From an uncultured bacterium (GTDB lineage Bacteria; Patescibacteriota; JACMRA01): a DNA stretch of 64,000 nucleotides. A program made the position numbers and the translations under genes. This document shows, piece by piece, positions 19,325 to 57,753 of the stretch. Each line of letters starts with the position of its first letter. The first letter of the stretch is position 1. Location of the stretch: positions 1,056,001 to 1,120,000 of the forward strand of contig OY969926.1 in NCBI GenBank assembly GCA_963704645.1, written 5' to 3'. A model generated the notes under the pieces. The model was not told where the DNA came from. It saw only the letters and a list, made by a program, of their open reading frames with translations, and did no database searches.

Positions 19325-20314
19325 CTAAACTCTAAAACATTGGACCAAAATTGGAGCTTTGTCTTTATTTACTACATAATAGCTTTGAAAAAAACGTTGC
19401 AAAAATTCCTCTGCTAAAGCATTTTCTCTGTTTTCAGTTTCTGTTTCCACTTCGCCAGTACCCGCTAGAATGTAATTTCCTACATTAATTAATTTTCCAC
19501 CTCTAATATTTTGTATAAAAATACTGCCAAGTTCCAAACCTTCAGCGTCTGTTCTTGCTACCAAAGTAACCAAATCTATATCGGTGGGTTGTGGTAAAAT
19601 AATTTTTTGGGTTCCAATTGTGTCTTGCAAAATGTTTAATCTGTCTCGCCACATTGCTGCTAAAGCAAAGTTTCCAGCAACAACTGCATTACCAATTTTT
19701 TGTTGAATAAAATCTTGTACAAGTTCGGTTTTACCCTCTAAAACATTTTGAATTTGCTTAATTTTTTGTGAATAATCTTGAATATTTTCTTTGCCAACAC
19801 ATATTCCATCACACTGTTTTATACCATAATAATTACAAGGCCGCTTCTGAGGAGTACGCTCCTGACAGTAAGGAAAAATTGTTCTTAAAGTTCGCAGAGT
19901 GTTGTAAATGTTGCTTTGTTTTGTATACGGCCCAAAGTACAAACTAGCTGGATCGTATTTTTTTCGAACTAAAAATATTGCTGGAATTACATCGTTGGTA
20001 ATTCGTACATATACATAACTTTTGTCGTCTTTCAGCAAAATATTATACTTCGGCTGAAGATTATGAATTAAATTAGCCTCTAAAATTAAACTTTCTTTCT
20101 CGGAAGCAACCACAGTGTATTCAATTCTATCAATTCGGCTAATCATTAAAGTTAACCTTTGGTTCTTTGGCCTTCCTTCCTGAAAATAGCTTGCAACCCT
20201 ATTCTTCAAGTTTTTGGCTTTACCAATATATAATAATCCACCGTCTTTATCGTAGTACCTATAAACACCAGGTTTTTGCGGTAAATTTTTAATTGTGGAC
20301 TTGAAATCTGACAT
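19325..20314 (-). CDS. uvrC: UvrC N-terminal half (GIY-YIG, Cys-rich, UVR and middle domain)
   Basis: LPQKPGVYRY..LLYIGKAKNLKNRVASYF, PKYNILLKDDKSY, YFGPY; stops after SYY...KAPILV with no RNase H-like or HhH domains. Start taken at MSDFK (20314). Confidence 0.92.
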   Translation of the reverse strand: MSDFKSTIKNLPQKPGVYRYYDKDGGLLYIGKAKNLKNRVASYFQEGRPKNQRLTLMISRIDRIEYTVVASEKESLILEANLIHNLQPKYNILLKDDKSYVYVRITNDVIPAIFLVRKKYDPASLYFGPYTKQSNIYNTLRTLRTIFPYCQERTPQKRPCNYYGIKQCDGICVGKENIQDYSQKIKQIQNVLEGKTELVQDFIQQKIGNAVVAGNFALAAMWRDRLNILQDTIGTQKIILPQPTDIDLVTLVARTDAEGLELGSIFIQNIRGGKLINVGNYILAGTGEVETETENRENALAEEFLQRFFQSYYVVNKDKAPILVQCFRV

Positions 20315-20444
20315 TGAACTTAAACAATAAGTAAATTGTTTTTGGAATTTATACAAGCTTATTTTGAAGTGCAATACCAATGCAAGCACATAAATACTTG
20401 TATTATTTTATTCTATCGCTGAACCTTTACAAAACAAAAATTGC

Positions 20445-23355: not shown

Positions 23356-25635
23356 ATGAGTGTGAAACTTCTAAAATTTGAACATCAGTTGGGTGAAATT
23401 GATTGGTTAGTGGAACAGGTTCAAAAGCAAATTGAAAATGGAGTACTTCCGGCCGAAATTGCAATTATTGCCCCAAAGCATAAATACTTGGAAACCATCA
23501 CCAAATTTTTATTAGAAAAAAACATTCCTGTAAGTTATATTCGTGAAAATTCTGTGCTTGAAGAACCAACTATTGTGGCACTTTTAGACATGGTAAAATT
23601 AACCCATTTTATAATTACCAACCCAGAACAAGCCAATGTTTACTGGCTAAAAGTTTTGTCTAACCCTTGTTGGAATTTGTCTGCTTCAACTATTTCCAAA
23701 TTATCTTTAATTACTTTTTATTCAAGGTTAAGCTGGCAAGAAACTTTAGGCTTAATTGAAATTGGTAGGACAAATATAGCTTCAAATAAATTGGCTAGTG
23801 AAGGTAAAAGGGAGCAGAAAAGTGGCGTCAACAATAATGCTTTAGATTATATTGCAAGTTATACTCTAGAGGGTATTTCAAACGATGATGTCGGTGGCTC
23901 TGCAAACAATATTTTAAGAAATGTTATAGATGATGTTCTAATTGCTAAACCACATTTGCAGCTTACTGAGACCGAGGTGAAACAAGTGTCTTCAATTTCC
24001 AAATTCTTCATCGAAATTTCAAAAACAGCTTTGCAAGAACCAGCCGAGCAAATTTTAAACCGTTTACTTGGTGTTGAAAATGTACAAATTGGAGCAGAAG
24101 AAGAAACCGACGACGAAATAGAATTAGGTTTAATAGAAAATGATAACTTCGATTTTAATTCTACAACACAAAACTTAAACCAGAAAAAAACTCAAACTTT
24201 TGTTTCACCTTTCAAGCAATATTACTTTGATACAGCCAGAAATAATAATGATAAAAACTACTTAATTTTCTTAGCCAATTTACGGGTTTTGGTAGACCAG
24301 CTTCGTAAAATGAATTCGGCTGAACAAATTTTAATTAGTCATTGGCTAGAATCTTTAGCCATTTTAAATGCCAGACAAAAGCCCTTGGTTTCTAAATTAA
24401 GCATAGGAAATTCAAGCCAATCTGTAAATTTAATTACGGCGCATTCTGCTAAAGGTTTAGAGTTTGAAACTGTTTTCTTGGTGCACTGTAATAAAAGTGT
24501 TTGGAGCAGTAAAGGTAAAAATACAATACTTTCTTTGCCGAAAAACCTTAATTTACAATCAGAAGCCGAGAACAGAGATGACCAAATTAGGCTATTTTTC
24601 GTGTCTCTAACAAGAGCAAAACGTAATTTGTTTTTAAGCTATTCCAATTTAAGTTTGCAAGATGAACAATTAGAAAAACTAACCTTCCTTGATGAAAGTA
24701 GCCTTGAAGAAGAGGTAGTTGAAAAAGAAATTTTGCCTTTAAATTTACATTGGTTTAATTTGAAAAGCCAAGAAAACCTGTTAACCTTAACCGAAACGGA
24801 ATTTCTAGCCCCAGAGCTTCAGGGCTACCAATTAAGCGTTACCCATTTAAACAACTTTTTGGACATTGAAAAAGGCGGGCCAAACTATTTTTTGTCTACC
24901 AATTTACTAAGATTTCCTATGGCTAAAAGTGAATCGGCTGTTTTTGGAACTTTAATGCACGAAAGCATGGCCAATTTCTATAAACAATTTGCTTCCACCA
25001 AAACTTTGCCAGATTTTGACTATTTGCTAACTTCCTTTAAAACATTATTGAACAGGCAAAAAATTAGTAAGAACCAAAAAGAAAAAGACTTTAAAAAAGC
25101 CAGCAGGTACTTAAAAGATTATTATGAAAATAGAAAAGATGAGTTCAATTTTAACCACAAAATTGAGTTTGACTTTAAAAACCAAGGCGTTCTTTTAGGC
25201 CAAGCAAAATTGTCTGGTAAAATAGATAAAATGGTTATAAATGAAGAAAATAAAACTATTTCAGTTATAGATTTAAAAACTGGGAAATATATTCCAAAGT
25301 GGGTTGAAAAGGGAACAAGTTACGAAGCCGAAAAGTCTGATAATTACAAAAGACAATTGGTTTTTTACAAACTTTTAGTAGAAAATTCCCGCGAGTTTAA
25401 AGGCAAATACATTGTAGATAGCGGCGCCCTAGACTTTTTAGAATCAGATTTGGACACTGGTTTAGTTCATTGTTTAGAGACTAGTATTTCAAACCACGAG
25501 GCGGAACAATTAGAATTATTAATTCAAAAGATTTGGGCCAGAATTATGAAATTAGACTTTTCTTTACCCAGCCAAAAGTACGACAAAGGCTTAGCAGGAA
25601 AACAACAATTTATTCAAGAATTGCTAGCGGAATAA
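23356..25635 (+). CDS. UvrD/PcrA-like helicase C-terminal half fused to a PD-(D/E)XK nuclease
   Basis: Begins in domain 2A (GEIDWL..EIAII); motif V TAHSAKGLEFETVFL; motif VI RLFFVSLTRAK; LSVTHL..FGT..H..GKIDK..VIDLKTG..QL..Y. No Walker A/B. Confidence 0.92.
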   Translation: MSVKLLKFEHQLGEIDWLVEQVQKQIENGVLPAEIAIIAPKHKYLETITKFLLEKNIPVSYIRENSVLEEPTIVALLDMVKLTHFIITNPEQANVYWLKVLSNPCWNLSASTISKLSLITFYSRLSWQETLGLIEIGRTNIASNKLASEGKREQKSGVNNNALDYIASYTLEGISNDDVGGSANNILRNVIDDVLIAKPHLQLTETEVKQVSSISKFFIEISKTALQEPAEQILNRLLGVENVQIGAEEETDDEIELGLIENDNFDFNSTTQNLNQKKTQTFVSPFKQYYFDTARNNNDKNYLIFLANLRVLVDQLRKMNSAEQILISHWLESLAILNARQKPLVSKLSIGNSSQSVNLITAHSAKGLEFETVFLVHCNKSVWSSKGKNTILSLPKNLNLQSEAENRDDQIRLFFVSLTRAKRNLFLSYSNLSLQDEQLEKLTFLDESSLEEEVVEKEILPLNLHWFNLKSQENLLTLTETEFLAPELQGYQLSVTHLNNFLDIEKGGPNYFLSTNLLRFPMAKSESAVFGTLMHESMANFYKQFASTKTLPDFDYLLTSFKTLLNRQKISKNQKEKDFKKASRYLKDYYENRKDEFNFNHKIEFDFKNQGVLLGQAKLSGKIDKMVINEENKTISVIDLKTGKYIPKWVEKGTSYEAEKSDNYKRQLVFYKLLVENSREFKGKYIVDSGALDFLESDLDTGLVHCLETSISNHEAEQLELLIQKIWARIMKLDFSLPSQKYDKGLAGKQQFIQELLAE

Positions 25636-52365: not shown

Positions 52366-53244
52366 CTAAGGCAAGTATTTCCCTAAAAAACTTCTGCGGT
52401 GAATTGGAGTAAATCCAAATTCTTTTATGGCCGTAATATGTTTAGCCGTTCCATAGCCCATATTGCTTTGTAAATAATATTCTGGATAGTTTTTGGAATA
52501 TTCAATCATAATTTCATCTCTAAATTGTTTAGCTAAATTGGAAGCTAGAGCTATGCTTAAAAATTTATCATCACCAAAGTTTTCTTCAGTAATTTCTAGG
52601 TTGGCATTTTTAAGAATTGATCCTAATTCGTTCGCTGCTAAAATTTTTTGGATGTTCTCCTTTCCAAGTTTTAAGGATAATAAAATGTGTAAATTCTCCT
52701 GTAAAATTAAATTTAAGAGTTCTACTTGATAACTTTCTTGCAACTTCAAAGTTCCGTCTAAAAATAAATGGCTTTTTAAATATTCAGGGTTTATTTCAGA
52801 AAGGAGGAGAAGACCAAAAGCCAGTAAATGCCGAATACAAACTGCAATTCCATATTCATCAATTAAGCTTGAACTGGCTTGCAAAACTATGTTAAACGGT
52901 GATATTTCCCCAACCTTTTCAGCGACTTCTTTTCTAAATTTCGCAGTGGTTTTTTTGCTATCACGCAACTTTTGCCAGAAGGGTTTTTGAGTAAAAAGGG
53001 AGTCCAAGCTTTGCGTTGACTTAGCAAGTTTATCAAGCTCAATCTCGTGGATATTACTCTCAGTTAGAGCAGTAACAGAGTCTAAAGCGATTGATTTCGT
53101 ACTATTACTATTAATATGCCTGTATGTATAAACCCCCACTTCAACTGGAAGTACTACAAGTCCAACGCAAACAGGACCTGCCACTGGGCCTCTACCCACT
53201 TCGTCTACTCCAACCTGCCATTGTTTTAATTCTTGGATTTCCAT
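52366..53244 (-). CDS. rnhB: Ribonuclease HII with insertions
   Basis: GVDEVGRGPVAGPV, LRDSKK, LDG, GD..F.SIALAS.LAK..RD, GYGT, HRRSF. Confidence 0.95.
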   Translation of the reverse strand: MEIQELKQWQVGVDEVGRGPVAGPVCVGLVVLPVEVGVYTYRHINSNSTKSIALDSVTALTESNIHEIELDKLAKSTQSLDSLFTQKPFWQKLRDSKKTTAKFRKEVAEKVGEISPFNIVLQASSSLIDEYGIAVCIRHLLAFGLLLLSEINPEYLKSHLFLDGTLKLQESYQVELLNLILQENLHILLSLKLGKENIQKILAANELGSILKNANLEITEENFGDDKFLSIALASNLAKQFRDEIMIEYSKNYPEYYLQSNMGYGTAKHITAIKEFGFTPIHRRSFLGKYLP

Positions 53245-53289: not shown

Positions 53290-54201
53290 CTACGCCCCAC
53301 TCCATTTTAAAGCTACTTGGCTTATTGGAGAAAGTAAATCTGTTTCTTGCACACTTTCCTTACCATTAATTACAGCAACTAATCTTTCTAGTCCCATACC
53401 TGTGTCTATATTTTTAGCTGGCATTGGCACAATATTTATTGGCTCTTTGCTTGAATCCTTTTCACCCTCAAATTGCATAAACACATGATTCCAAATTTCA
53501 ATTATCTGGTTATCTACAAAATCAAACTTTTGGGAATCTGTTAAATTTGGTAAAATTGTTTCCTGAAAATTAATTGGATGCTTATTACTTAAATAGTAAA
53601 TTTCGCTGCATGGCCCACATGGCCCACGATAAGGCAAACCCCACCAATTGTCTTTACCACTCATAGTTCTAACTCGGTAAACATATTTAGTGCCAGGTAA
53701 ATTAGCTGAAACATCATCAAAATTGTATTCTGCACCAACATCGGCTGTAATTCCTACTTTTGCGAATTGCTTAACCCAAGCTTGAATAGCTTCATCATCT
53801 TGCTCAACCGATTCATTTCCTCTGTAAACGGTTACATACAAGCGTTCAGGATCTAGCCCTAGCCAATCTTTGGACGTTAAAAATTCAAAACCCCAAGCTA
53901 TAGATTCTTGCTTAAAATAATCACCTAAAGACCAAGATCCTAACATTTCAAAGAAAGTAAGATGCCTGTTATCTCCTACTTCTTCAATATCATCAGTACG
54001 AACACACTTTTGTGAATTAGCTAGTCGTGTTCCACTTGGATGAGGTTGTCCCATTAAAAACGGAACTAGCGGTTGCATTCCGGCTGTATTGAATAAAACG
54101 GTAGGATCTTCTTTGGGAACAAGTGCAGCTGAAGGCAAAATGGCATGACCTTTACTTGCGAAAAAGTCTATGAATTTCTGACGAATAACTTTGCCTTCCA
54201 T
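53290..54201 (-). CDS. alaS: Alanine--tRNA ligase, catalytic domain only (303 aa)
   Basis: DPTVLFNTAGM, QKCVRT.DIEEVG..RHLTFFEMLG, GPCGPCSEI, EIWN.VFMQ, IDTGMGLERL, then a stop about 28 codons later. Confidence 0.93.
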   Translation of the reverse strand: MEGKVIRQKFIDFFASKGHAILPSAALVPKEDPTVLFNTAGMQPLVPFLMGQPHPSGTRLANSQKCVRTDDIEEVGDNRHLTFFEMLGSWSLGDYFKQESIAWGFEFLTSKDWLGLDPERLYVTVYRGNESVEQDDEAIQAWVKQFAKVGITADVGAEYNFDDVSANLPGTKYVYRVRTMSGKDNWWGLPYRGPCGPCSEIYYLSNKHPINFQETILPNLTDSQKFDFVDNQIIEIWNHVFMQFEGEKDSSKEPINIVPMPAKNIDTGMGLERLVAVINGKESVQETDLLSPISQVALKWSGA

Positions 54202-54219: not shown

Positions 54220-55299
54220 TTAAAACTGACTAATAATTTTTACTGTGGTGGTTGTTAATTCAGGATCTGGTTTTCCACCCATAGCAGGATCTGAACCTTC
54301 GGCTATTATTGGGTTAACTTTTTCAACAATTTGATCTAAAATGCTAAGACTGGAATCGTCTACTGTGCCAAAAACAGTGTAATCAGCTGGTAATACAGTT
54401 TTATCTAAAGTAATAAAGTATTGACTTGTTGCAGAATTTGGAGCAGAAGTTTTAGCCATTAAAATTAAACCTTTTCTGTAAGTAATTTGTCCTGTAGTAG
54501 AATTGAAATCAGAGTACAAACTAGGGGCACGAAGTTCCGGAGTGTTAGTTAAAACTTGAGCATTTCCTTCAGTTTTGTATTGAGGAGATTTTCCATCTTT
54601 CCAAATCTCATCTGGAACCTGATTGCCGCTAGCAGTTTCGCCGCCTGTTCCATCCTCCTTAGGATCACCACCTTGTAAAACCTTGAAATTATCTACTTCT
54701 ACAATTCTGTGTGGTCTATTTCCATCATAAAACTTACGACTAGTTAAACGTACAAAGTTTTCTACTGTTGCAGGTGCATATTCTTTCTTTAAAGTTAGGT
54801 TGATTGTTCCAAAATCTTTCACATCCATAGCAATTTTCCACTCTGAGGTTGAGTCAATTTTTAAGACTGAATTTTCCTGTTCAATTTGTTTAGCTTTTGC
54901 CTCTGCAGTTTCTTTGGCTTTTGTTTCATTTTCTTTCCTAATTCTAGCTGCAATTGCTTCGTCAGTGTTGTTTAAAACGTGAGGAATATATATAAAGCTA
55001 ACACTTAAAATTATAGCAATAAAAACAACCCCAATTAATACTGAAATGGCCTTATTTTGTAGGTTTTCATCTTTTAATAATTCTGCATATTTATAGTTTT
55101 TGTCCTTAGCAGATTCCATTTTTTCAGCTTCCATAGTTACTACTTTTTGTTCCATTTTAACTGGTTGTGTGGTAACTTTTTTTGTAGGTTTTGCTGAAAT
55201 TTCAGATGTTTTTAATTCAGGTTTAGTAGTTTTAGCCGAAGTGTTTTTGCTACCAGAAGTTTTTTTAGTAGTTTTAGAAGTTTTATTATTAGAAGCCAT
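54220..55299 (-). CDS. Membrane-anchored cyclophilin-type peptidyl-prolyl isomerase
   Basis: APATVENF, FYDG...HRIV, QGGDP..GTGG, SATSQYFI, YTVFG; one TM helix. Confidence 0.92.
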   Translation of the reverse strand: MASNNKTSKTTKKTSGSKNTSAKTTKPELKTSEISAKPTKKVTTQPVKMEQKVVTMEAEKMESAKDKNYKYAELLKDENLQNKAISVLIGVVFIAIILSVSFIYIPHVLNNTDEAIAARIRKENETKAKETAEAKAKQIEQENSVLKIDSTSEWKIAMDVKDFGTINLTLKKEYAPATVENFVRLTSRKFYDGNRPHRIVEVDNFKVLQGGDPKEDGTGGETASGNQVPDEIWKDGKSPQYKTEGNAQVLTNTPELRAPSLYSDFNSTTGQITYRKGLILMAKTSAPNSATSQYFITLDKTVLPADYTVFGTVDDSSLSILDQIVEKVNPIIAEGSDPAMGGKPDPELTTTTVKIISQF

Positions 55300-55589: not shown

Positions 55590-57753
55590 ATGTCCAAATT
55601 TACAATAGCCCAAGCTTTAGCTTCTAATAAAGTACCAGAAAATACAGACGAACCAAGAAAAAAGAAATCTTCGGCCGATAGAAAAAGGCTTACTATCGGT
55701 TCAGCTAAAGTTACCAAAATTAAAGTTCCAAAAATTACTAAAATTTTTAAAGCTAAGGAAGTTGTTAAAACTGAAGAAGAACTAGCAGAAGAAGCAAAAA
55801 AAGTTCCGGTAAAACTAACCAGAGCAGCCTTAGCCAGAAAGGCCAACCCTAAAGAACTTGTTACCAGAAAAGGTATACTTGGATTGAACCTTGTTTCAAC
55901 TGCCGACACCAACCGTTTAGCAGCCTTGGAAGACGATTCTATTGAGCAACGTGGAGGCAGAAGATACCGTGTAACAGACGATGGTGTAAAAATTAAAATG
56001 AAGAAAGTTACTAAGCGTAGAATTAGTAAAAGTTCTGGTAAAGTTTTAAAGAAATTCATTGAAAACGATGCTTCTTTATACCCAGAATTTCAAAGACAGC
56101 CTTTAGATTGGCAGGCCAATGTTGTAGATACAATTAAGCAAGCTATTACCAGAGGTTTTGTTACCGAAGACGAGCTGTTATTCATGTTACCAAGGCCAGA
56201 AGAAAATATTAGACTTTTGGAAGACTTGTACGATTTAGCCGAAGACAGTGGGGCCGGAATTAAACTAGATAATACTTTAGATAGTTTGTGGGACACTCTA
56301 GAAAACGAGGATGAAATGAAACGCCGTGAAATGGAATTGGCTGAAAAGCTTTCAGGTTCCTTGGCAGGAGATGTTGGTGGTGACGAACTAAAAGATGATT
56401 CTGTTCAAAACTATATTAGAGATGTTTCAAGGTACCCTGTGCTAACTAAAGAGCAGGAAGTGGAATTAGCCAAAAGAATTGAGCAAGGCGACCAAAGCGC
56501 CAAACGTGAATTAACTTATGCCAACCTTAAATTAGTTGTTCATAATGCCAAAAAATACATGGGCAGAAACCTTGCCTTTCTAGATTTAATTCAAGAAGGA
56601 AACATGGGTTTGTTCCGTGCTGTAGAAAAATTTGATTGGAGACGTGGCTATAAGTTTTCTACTTACGCCAGTTACTGGATTGACCAAAGTATTAGAAGGG
56701 CACTTAGCCGACCAAAGCAGACCAGTGCGTTTGCCTGTTCACGTTGAAGAAAAACTTAACCGTTTCAAAAAAGAAAAGCGTGCTTTAATTGACGAACTGG
56801 GAAGAGAACCAACCGACGACGAGTTGGCAGAAAAGCTAGAACTAGATATGGACACCATCTTCTACTTCAGAAGAATTAGCCAAGACACAGTTTCTATAGA
56901 TACAATGATTGGTTTTTCTGATGACAGTGATACTTTAATGGTGGAAATGATTGAGGACGAAAACACAGCTCCGCCAATTGAAGTAGCCAGTAACAGAATT
57001 TTACGTGGTCATGTAATGAAAATTATTGATGACGTTTTAGAACCTCGTGAAAAGAAAGTAATTTTATTAAGATTTGGTTTAGATGGAACTAATGTTTCCC
57101 ACACTTTAGAAGAAATTGGAGAAGTTTTTCATGTTACCCGTGAACGTGTTCGCCAAATTGAAGAAGTAGCTTTAAACAAAATTAGGCAACACAATGAAAG
57201 TTTTAAATTAGTAGATTTCTTGGAAGGTGTTCACCCACAAACCTTTAATAATGAAGAGGTTAAAGCTGTGGATGTAGACAAAGAAATTCAAATTGGAAAG
57301 AAAATTCCTTTAGAAGTTTTAGTAGAGCAAATTGTACACCAAATTGTAAGCCAAGAGTCAGCTTTGTTCTTTATTAAAGGCGAAATGGGAAGCGGCAAAA
57401 CCAGAGCAGTACAGGACATTTGTAAGAAACTAGGAACAGAAGTAGAAGCAACGTCCCCTACTTTTGCCCTACTTCAAAAGTACCAATTGGCAACATCAAG
57501 CGCTGCCAAACAAAACGCCCAAATGGAAAATGTAGCCCATTTAGATTTACACAGGTTAAAAACTATAACCAAGGAAGACGAAGGTTGGATTGAAGAAGAA
57601 ATGGTAAACACCCAACAAGTTGTATTTGTTGAATGGCCAGAAAAACTTCTAAAAAACCAAGGTTTTATTCAATTCATAGGAAGAAAGTTCTACATAATTG
57701 AAGCCAAAATAGGCAAAAAAGGCGACCACTACTTCAGAATCAGAGAAGATTAG
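55590..57753 (+). CDS. rpoD: Primary sigma factor RpoD with one extra base near 56700-56706, C-terminally fused to a TsaE-like ATPase
   Basis: First ORF: [43 protein letters not shown]. Second ORF resumes [12 protein letters not shown]...[17 protein letters not shown], then [24 protein letters not shown]. Confidence 0.9.

Follow-up and report, generated by a model that had tools for sequence, protein, structure and literature searches.

Alanyl-tRNA synthetase (AlaRS) has been described as the sole synthetase that keeps its prototype architecture throughout biology, Nanoarchaeum excepted (PMC10036535). The natural split AlaRS of the literature is the two-piece enzyme of the Nanoarchaeota (PMC11392972, PMC10036535, PMC6349945). 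The alpha subunit of N. equitans AlaRS corresponds approximately to residues 1 to 368 of the Escherichia coli enzyme, comprising the catalytic domain and the first recognition subdomain, and the two subunits jointly give charging that is specific for G3:U70 (PMC11392972). A mini-AlaRS of Tupanvirus and the E. coli fragments 368N and 442N indicate that AlaRS can be reduced to modules, residues up to about 442 being sufficient for charging (PMC10036535, PMC11392972). The present analysis concerns alaS in an uncultured bacterium of the phylum Patescibacteriota (GTDB lineage JACMRA01) and starts from an open reading frame (ORF) at positions 53290 to 54201, minus strand, of a 64,000-nucleotide stretch of its chromosome, termed the window. 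This ORF encodes a stand-alone AlaRS catalytic domain. It is likely that a single AlaRS gene was broken twice in the evolution of this lineage and that the enzyme is built from three separately translated proteins which reassociate. Other synthetases with functions divided among separately encoded subunits include the alpha/beta LeuRS of Aquifex aeolicus, the crenarchaeal ThrRS-cat/ThrRS-ed pair and the bacterial alpha2beta2 GlyRS, but these are different enzymes with two kinds of subunit, and we know of no natural synthetase in three pieces.

Three alaS pieces on one chromosome

The genome of this bacterium (G000) consists of one contig, C1, of 1,272,640 bases, within which the window is G000:C1:1056001-1120000. 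The window ORF, termed piece 1 (alpha), lies at genome positions 1109290 to 1110201, encodes 303 amino acids and carries motifs 2 and 3 of the class II catalytic (aminoacylation) domain. Its match to PF01411 (tRNA-synt_2c) was restricted to profile positions 2 to 257 of 552 (E 7.8e-74) and its match to TIGR00344 (alaS) to positions 2 to 243 of 847, with a score of 267.6 bits against a cut-off of 457.05. The top NCBIfam model was that of the short-form AlaRS (NF002436; 287.3 bits, cut-off 529), while the archaeal-type model TIGR03683 gave 60.8 bits compared with the 267.6 bits of the bacterial TIGR00344. Motif 3 (DTGMGLERL) occupies residues 266 to 274, and the stop follows 29 residues further on. 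On a 592-position hidden Markov model (HMM) built from the AlaRS of 12 intact relatives (599 to 643 amino acids), piece 1 spans positions 1 to 253, and residues R68, D266, G268, G270, E272 and R273 were invariant in a 40-sequence alignment. The profile coverage and the position of motif 3 thus bear out the initial annotation of the window, in which this ORF had been read as an alaS limited to the catalytic domain and ending soon after motif 3. The gene for RNase HII, rnhB (window 52366 to 53244, minus strand), had been placed directly downstream at a distance of 46 bp; the order was correct, but the spacing is 45 nucleotides from the piece 1 stop codon to the rnhB ATG. As rnhB starts this close, the piece 1 ORF has no continuation. 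Nor is there a frameshifted continuation; in a whole-genome search, the remaining AlaRS sequence was confined to G000:C1:542-545 kb, which is not part of the window.

The contig was searched in six frames with PF01411 and TIGR00344 and by tblastn with three intact relatives. Exactly three AlaRS places were detected by these searches, and an intact alaS, the finding that would have been at odds with a split gene, was not present in this single-contig genome. Aligned by tblastn to a 599-amino-acid single-chain relative, the three pieces corresponded to residues 1 to 256, 282 to 388 and 388 to 595, with none missing and none duplicated; their summed length is 643 amino acids. Piece 1 lies approximately 564 kb, or 44% of the contig, from the other two. 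Piece 2 (G000:C1:545104-545460, equivalent to L004:7105-7461, minus strand; 118 amino acids) is the helical first half of the tRNA-recognition domain and matches PF01411 positions 274 to 371. It starts with a TTG codon, an in-frame ATG six codons later yielding 112 amino acids, and its N terminus is situated just ahead of the ADHIR helix, which is where the missing part had been predicted to begin. Piece 3 (G000:C1:542438-543106, minus strand; 222 amino acids) comprises the second half of the tRNA-recognition domain and an AlaX-like editing core, with a match to PF01411 positions 381 to 454 followed by one to tRNA_SAD (E 7.7e-13), the first ~60 residues being the second tRNA-recognition subdomain. 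Both the HxxxH editing motif, which had been proposed as a target for searches outside the window, and the CxxxH motif are present in this piece, and the zinc ligands H80, H84, C187 and H191 were invariant in 33 sequences. Each single piece scored below the AlaRS equivalog cut-off (best, 265.7 to 267.6 bits against 457.05 for TIGR00344).

A C-Ala (DHHA1-like) domain was not detected in G000, where no TIGR00344 match extended past position 694 of 847, and this domain is also missing from the single-chain relatives of the phylum. The helical, editing and C-Ala domains are, as annotated, all absent from the window; the first two are located at 542 to 545 kb and the third is nowhere in the genome. 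A second subunit encoded elsewhere had been anticipated, and the remainder of the enzyme does exist, but it is divided between two genes, making AlaRS of G000 a three-piece enzyme. The C terminus of piece 1 and the N termini of pieces 2 and 3 each lie within ~5 to 15 residues of homologous AlaRS sequence, with no added docking domains. A TIGR00344 match (positions 237 to 272) upstream of piece 2 and extending across a TAA codon was considered as a relic of the catalytic domain and was rejected as a weak match to low-complexity sequence. Promoter and terminator predictions around the three pieces did not exceed those for shuffled sequence (14 versus 13.8 and 8 versus 11.5, respectively).

The likeness to N. 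equitans lies in the derivation of an essential AlaRS from unlinked, distant genes on a small chromosome (PMC11392972) and in the location of the second break of G000 between the same landmarks, with the Asn-bearing helical subdomain upstream and an LYD-type motif downstream. The N. equitans break is at about E. coli residue 368, while piece 2 aligns to residue 374 of the 3hxu chain and ends 8 residues later; this likeness is limited to the three-piece genomes. The N. equitans enzyme, however, is archaeal-type and in two pieces, whereas that of G000 is bacterial-type and in three, and the N. equitans alpha subunit unites the catalytic domain and the first recognition subdomain, whereas piece 1 is the catalytic domain alone. 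Hence, the Nanoarchaeum-like character assigned to the split holds for the second break, which is at about the same boundary, but not for the break beside the window ORF, which separates the catalytic from the tRNA-recognition domain. As judged from sequence, the likeness is convergent and the origins are independent, since the pieces are of bacterial type and are nested among the enzymes of Patescibacteria, the split clade being sister to the patescibacterial single-chain AlaRS in the tree described below. No bacterial or patescibacterial split AlaRS was found in full-text searches of the literature, with subscription journals and supplements outside their reach; a break that leaves the catalytic domain alone is without precedent in the literature searched, and a prior report is possible.

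Among single-chain enzymes, the short AlaRS (NF002436/PRK01584; ~600 amino acids, no C-Ala), as found in the 12 intact relatives, has the same domain content and differs in being one polypeptide instead of three. The piece 3 editing core resembles the free-standing trans-editing proteins AlaX-S and AlaX-M in its zinc site (HxxxH and CxxxH) and superposes on their structures, but those proteins lack the second tRNA-recognition subdomain of AlaRS, which piece 3 carries at its N terminus. The difference from the Tupanvirus mini-AlaRS and the E. coli fragments is that in G000 the two domains are separate proteins.

Distribution and history of the breaks

The distribution of the breaks was investigated by a TIGR00344 survey of 31 genomes and by a search with piece 2 of the 27 species genomes of the class (which equals the GTDB order); the pieces were fetched from 19 split genomes, and break positions were scored with the 592-position HMM. 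Of the 18 other family members, 17 had a separate catalytic frame of ~300 to 350 amino acids (that of G012 was longer), as did the sole genome of the sister family. An intact alaS was absent from 26 of the 27 species genomes of the class, in agreement with the lineage-wide gene fission that had been suggested in the initial annotation. Single frames were found in one member of the family, G006 (647 amino acids), and in all 11 genomes of other families of the phylum (603 to 1000 amino acids). The first break fell between HMM positions 253-262 and 264-275 in every one of the 19 fetched split genomes, and the sharing of this stop position indicates that the end of piece 1 is neither due to chance nor an assembly artefact. 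For 11 of these genomes, the rest of AlaRS was one ORF of 327 to 350 amino acids, constituting a two-piece form. A second break, with HMM positions 374-378 on one side and 382-383 on the other, was present in the other eight (G000, G001, G003, G007, G009, G010, G012 and G014). Across the class, the frame covering the piece 2 region was of 110 to 189 amino acids in 10 genomes, 329 to 366 in 15, 229 in one where it was ended by a contig edge, and 647 in G006.

Similar proteins were found in public data. The best 120 public protein matches to piece 1 were all of 293 to 350 amino acids, with identities of 59 to 100%, and some were on contigs of >100 kb, giving at least 120 catalytic-only clusters at 59% identity or above. 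Both of the named proteins among these 120 matches were designated 'alanine--tRNA ligase-related protein' by NCBI. GTDB genome matches at ≥58% identity had frames of 303 to 328 amino acids, while those checked at ≤46% identity were mostly single frames of ~600 to 630 amino acids. A representative-protein search with piece 2 gave three matches at E<=1e-30 (334, 120 and 339 amino acids), the remaining lengths being mostly those of metagenomic fragments; this spread of lengths was left out of any count of free-standing forms.

A maximum-likelihood tree was generated from the concatenated pieces of the 19 split enzymes together with the 12 intact enzymes. All 19 split enzymes formed one clade, with a value of 100 in the Shimodaira-Hasegawa-like approximate likelihood ratio test (SH-aLRT), and all 12 intact enzymes were on the opposite side, so that the first break requires one change. 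The break between the catalytic domain and the rest would have occurred once, at the base of the class, and that inside the tRNA-recognition domain later, within the class. On this tree, the second break requires at least three changes on well-supported branches; an approximately unbiased (AU) test did not reject a single clade for the eight three-piece rows (p 0.055, for a group defined after viewing the tree). The three-piece forms have a common N-terminal motif on piece 3. Another genome, G037, has pieces that resemble those found in G009, G014 and G000 more closely than they do the fused form of G002, a member of the same genus. Its pieces 2 and 3 are neighbouring genes with a spacing of 44 nucleotides; they are in different frames, and stops lie between them. 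In G000 and G001, pieces 2 and 3 are separated by two genus-specific genes, whereas the remaining six three-piece genomes have them on different contigs. Thus, successive stages of fission are preserved as fused, adjacent, interrupted and dispersed forms in related genomes. The two intervening ORFs of G000, which together span G000:C1:543175-545081, encode proteins of 346 amino acids (L004:5176-6216, minus strand) and 284 amino acids (L004:6228-7082, minus strand; membrane-like), neither belonging to a Pfam family, and homologues of both were found only at the same position in G001.

Some AlaRS frames departed from these patterns. The sole single-chain enzyme of the class, that of G006 (L022:195-2126, minus strand; 643 amino acids), groups with AlaRS of other families on the tree, yet this genome has a split uvrC like the rest of the class. 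This combination suggests that the intact alaS of G006 is a later replacement by a transferred gene rather than an ancestral retention. The catalytic gene of G012 forms an open frame of 974 amino acids (L033:2986-5910, plus strand), in which guanylate kinase, Ham1-like and serine-hydrolase domains occur in frame between positions 130 and 149 of the AlaRS HMM; either a highly unusual insertion or an error of assembly would account for this. In other lineages, the AlaRS frames of L102 and L083 (match at 1501 onward), of 475 and 449 amino acids, end past the tRNA-recognition domain and may be further truncated or differently split AlaRS.

A proposed three-protein enzyme and its alternatives

In the proposed enzyme, piece 1 would make alanyl-adenylate and transfer alanine to tRNA, pieces 2 and 3 would hold the acceptor stem, and mischarged tRNA-Ala would be hydrolysed by the AlaX-S-type, zinc-dependent editing core in the C-terminal part of piece 3. 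Assembly would be non-covalent, via the native inter-domain surfaces, giving a 1:1:1 complex that charges two G3:U70 tRNA-Ala species. C-Ala is the usual dimerisation module and, as it is absent, a 1:1:1 complex would be the simplest expectation. The pieces are under purifying selection. Between G000 and its genus-mate G001, piece 1 had a ratio of nonsynonymous to synonymous substitution (dN/dS) of 0.084 and piece 3 one of 0.096, values that are rough, as dS was near saturation (1.3 to 1.7), though clear in direction; for piece 2, dN was 0.163 and dS was saturated. A check of tRNA-Ala for G3:U70 had been advised, and this pair is kept in both tRNA-Ala genes of G000, tRNA-Ala(GGC) and tRNA-Ala(UGC), each of which also has A73. 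AlphaFold models were obtained with predicted local distance difference test (pLDDT) values of 94.3 for piece 2 and 90.4 for piece 3, from alignments that include fused homologues and hence are no proof that each piece folds alone. The best solved match of the piece 2 model was AlaRS (TMq 0.77; 9jdn, 3hxu) and the piece 3 model matched AlaRS/AlaX, its editing core superposing on AlaX-S (1v7o, 1v4p, 1wnu) with TMt values of 0.80 to 0.82.

Several points weigh against this proposal, in addition to the near-saturated dS and the use of fused homologues in modelling. The residues that read U70 and G3 are Asn359 and Asp450 in A. fulgidus and N303 and D400 in E. coli (PMC11392972). Both are replaced in G000, the Asn by Gly35 of piece 2 and the Asp by Gln in piece 3. 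Most split genomes have Gly in place of the Asn, which 11 of the 12 intact relatives retain; in place of the Asp, all 19 split genomes have Gln, and this position is variable already in the phylum. Because of these replacements, G3:U70 recognition may work differently here. RNA sequencing runs for this organism were looked for and none was found; one DNA run contained 0.21 of the sampled words. Furthermore, G000 has a frame break in rpoD without a counterpart in 26 of 26 relatives, a private change that calls for caution on details resting on this single genome, such as exact start codons. The most likely arrangement would nevertheless be an association of the three pieces into one enzyme that charges tRNA.

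Another possibility is that the pieces are trans-acting modules which form no stable heterotrimer, the catalytic piece being only loosely joined by its helpers. Piece 3 would then serve mainly for editing in trans, in the manner of a free AlaX protein, and piece 2 would be a small tRNA-binding adaptor. The superposition of the editing core on free-standing AlaX-S, the presence of free AlaX-like ORFs of 231 to 251 amino acids in some relatives (G001 C31, G009 C39, G014 C2 and G023 C34), the unlinked genes without a common operon, and the activity of N. equitans AlaRS-alpha alone, which is independent of G3:U70 (PMC11392972), are all consistent with such an arrangement. The N terminus of piece 3, however, is the second tRNA-recognition subdomain, and E. 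coli residues 369 to 442 are required for charging; moreover, the 368-residue E. coli fragment is unable to charge tRNA (PMC11392972), and piece 1 is shorter still. The breaks are also at linkers joining subdomains that are packed against one another in solved AlaRS structures, and an arrangement of loose modules appears unlikely.

A single chain could in principle be restored, as sometimes happens with essential split genes, through trans-splicing of the mRNA, a split intein or bypass by the ribosome. Nothing positive was found for a mechanism of this kind. A scan of 14,892 bases surrounding the three pieces gave no match at E<=1 to any Rfam family, introns included, the few residues beyond homologous sequence at the piece ends are too little for intein halves, the pieces are 564 kb apart in G000 and on different contigs in relatives, and the adjacent pieces of G037 are in different frames with stops between; rejoining is thus highly improbable. 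There is equally little reason to regard the pieces as decaying remnants or assembly artefacts, with alanylation provided from a host or by a gene that escaped detection. The estimated completeness of G000 is 87%, its rpoD has the private frame break, and Patescibacteria are frequently host dependent, all of which would accommodate such an explanation. It is countered by the recurrence of the same break points in 19 independently assembled genomes, by the absence of internal stops, a dN/dS of ~0.1 and the invariance of active-site and zinc residues, and by the six-frame search of a single contig. For the three-protein enzyme, the chances seem about even that the following hold together: the class would use an obligate heterotrimeric AlaRS, with the catalytic domain apart from all tRNA-recognition elements, with a second break at a boundary independently hit by the Nanoarchaeota, and with G3:U70 read without the canonical Asn/Asp pair.

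Other split genes and implications

Two further split genes had been noted in the window, and both were recovered. The uvrC gene of G000 is divided into an N-terminal gene for the GIY-YIG half (window 19325 to 20389, minus strand; 354 amino acids) and a C-terminal gene for the RNase H-like endonuclease half (window 48251 to 49270, minus strand; 339 amino acids), 28 kb apart. No single frame covered the uvrC model in 23 of the 27 class genomes, the gene being intact only in G005, G031, G008 and G013. Among the genomes with an intact uvrC are the first lineages to branch within the split-AlaRS clade, indicating that uvrC was broken later than the first break in alaS. Similarly, a UvrD/AddA-like helicase-nuclease is encoded by two genes on opposite strands of the window, one for the N-terminal UvrD helicase domain only (44236 to 45588, minus strand; 450 amino acids) and the other for UvrD_C and a PD-(D/E)XK nuclease (23356 to 25635, plus strand; 759 amino acids).

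The rpoD gene of G000 is present as two frames at window positions 55590 to 56747 and 56632 to 57753 (both plus strand), with a break at ~56630 to 56750, between sigma regions 2 and 3; in the 26 relatives, it is one open frame of 591 to 812 amino acids. An indel error or a recent mutation is more likely than a true fission. The downstream rpoD frame runs into a TsaE domain, and there may be an RpoD-TsaE fusion in the class. Upstream of piece 1, at a distance of 18 nucleotides, is a gene for a cyclophilin-type peptidyl-prolyl isomerase with an N-terminal extension (window 54220 to 55299, minus strand), and the two genes are probably co-transcribed. The isomerase gene (cluster c3) adjoins the catalytic piece in G001, G005, G008 and G013 and is one gene off in G017.

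These findings amount to a second, independent case of a split AlaRS, which is bacterial and class-wide and has a new break point and a three-piece form. AlaRS (COG0013) serves as a universal single-copy marker in a diversity census (PMC11740963). As pieces of ~300, 115 and 220 amino acids fall below the cut-offs of full-length models, this lineage is open to mis-scored completeness or diversity. The class offers a natural system for investigating how modules for catalysis, tRNA recognition and editing come together and by what means G3:U70 is read in the absence of the usual Asn/Asp readers, and it is a possible natural model for engineered split synthetases (PMC9974479). If the proposal is true, this would be the first natural three-subunit AlaRS, and its relatives, with one, two or three pieces in adjacent, interrupted or dispersed arrangements, would form a natural series for the stepwise dismantling of an essential multidomain enzyme.

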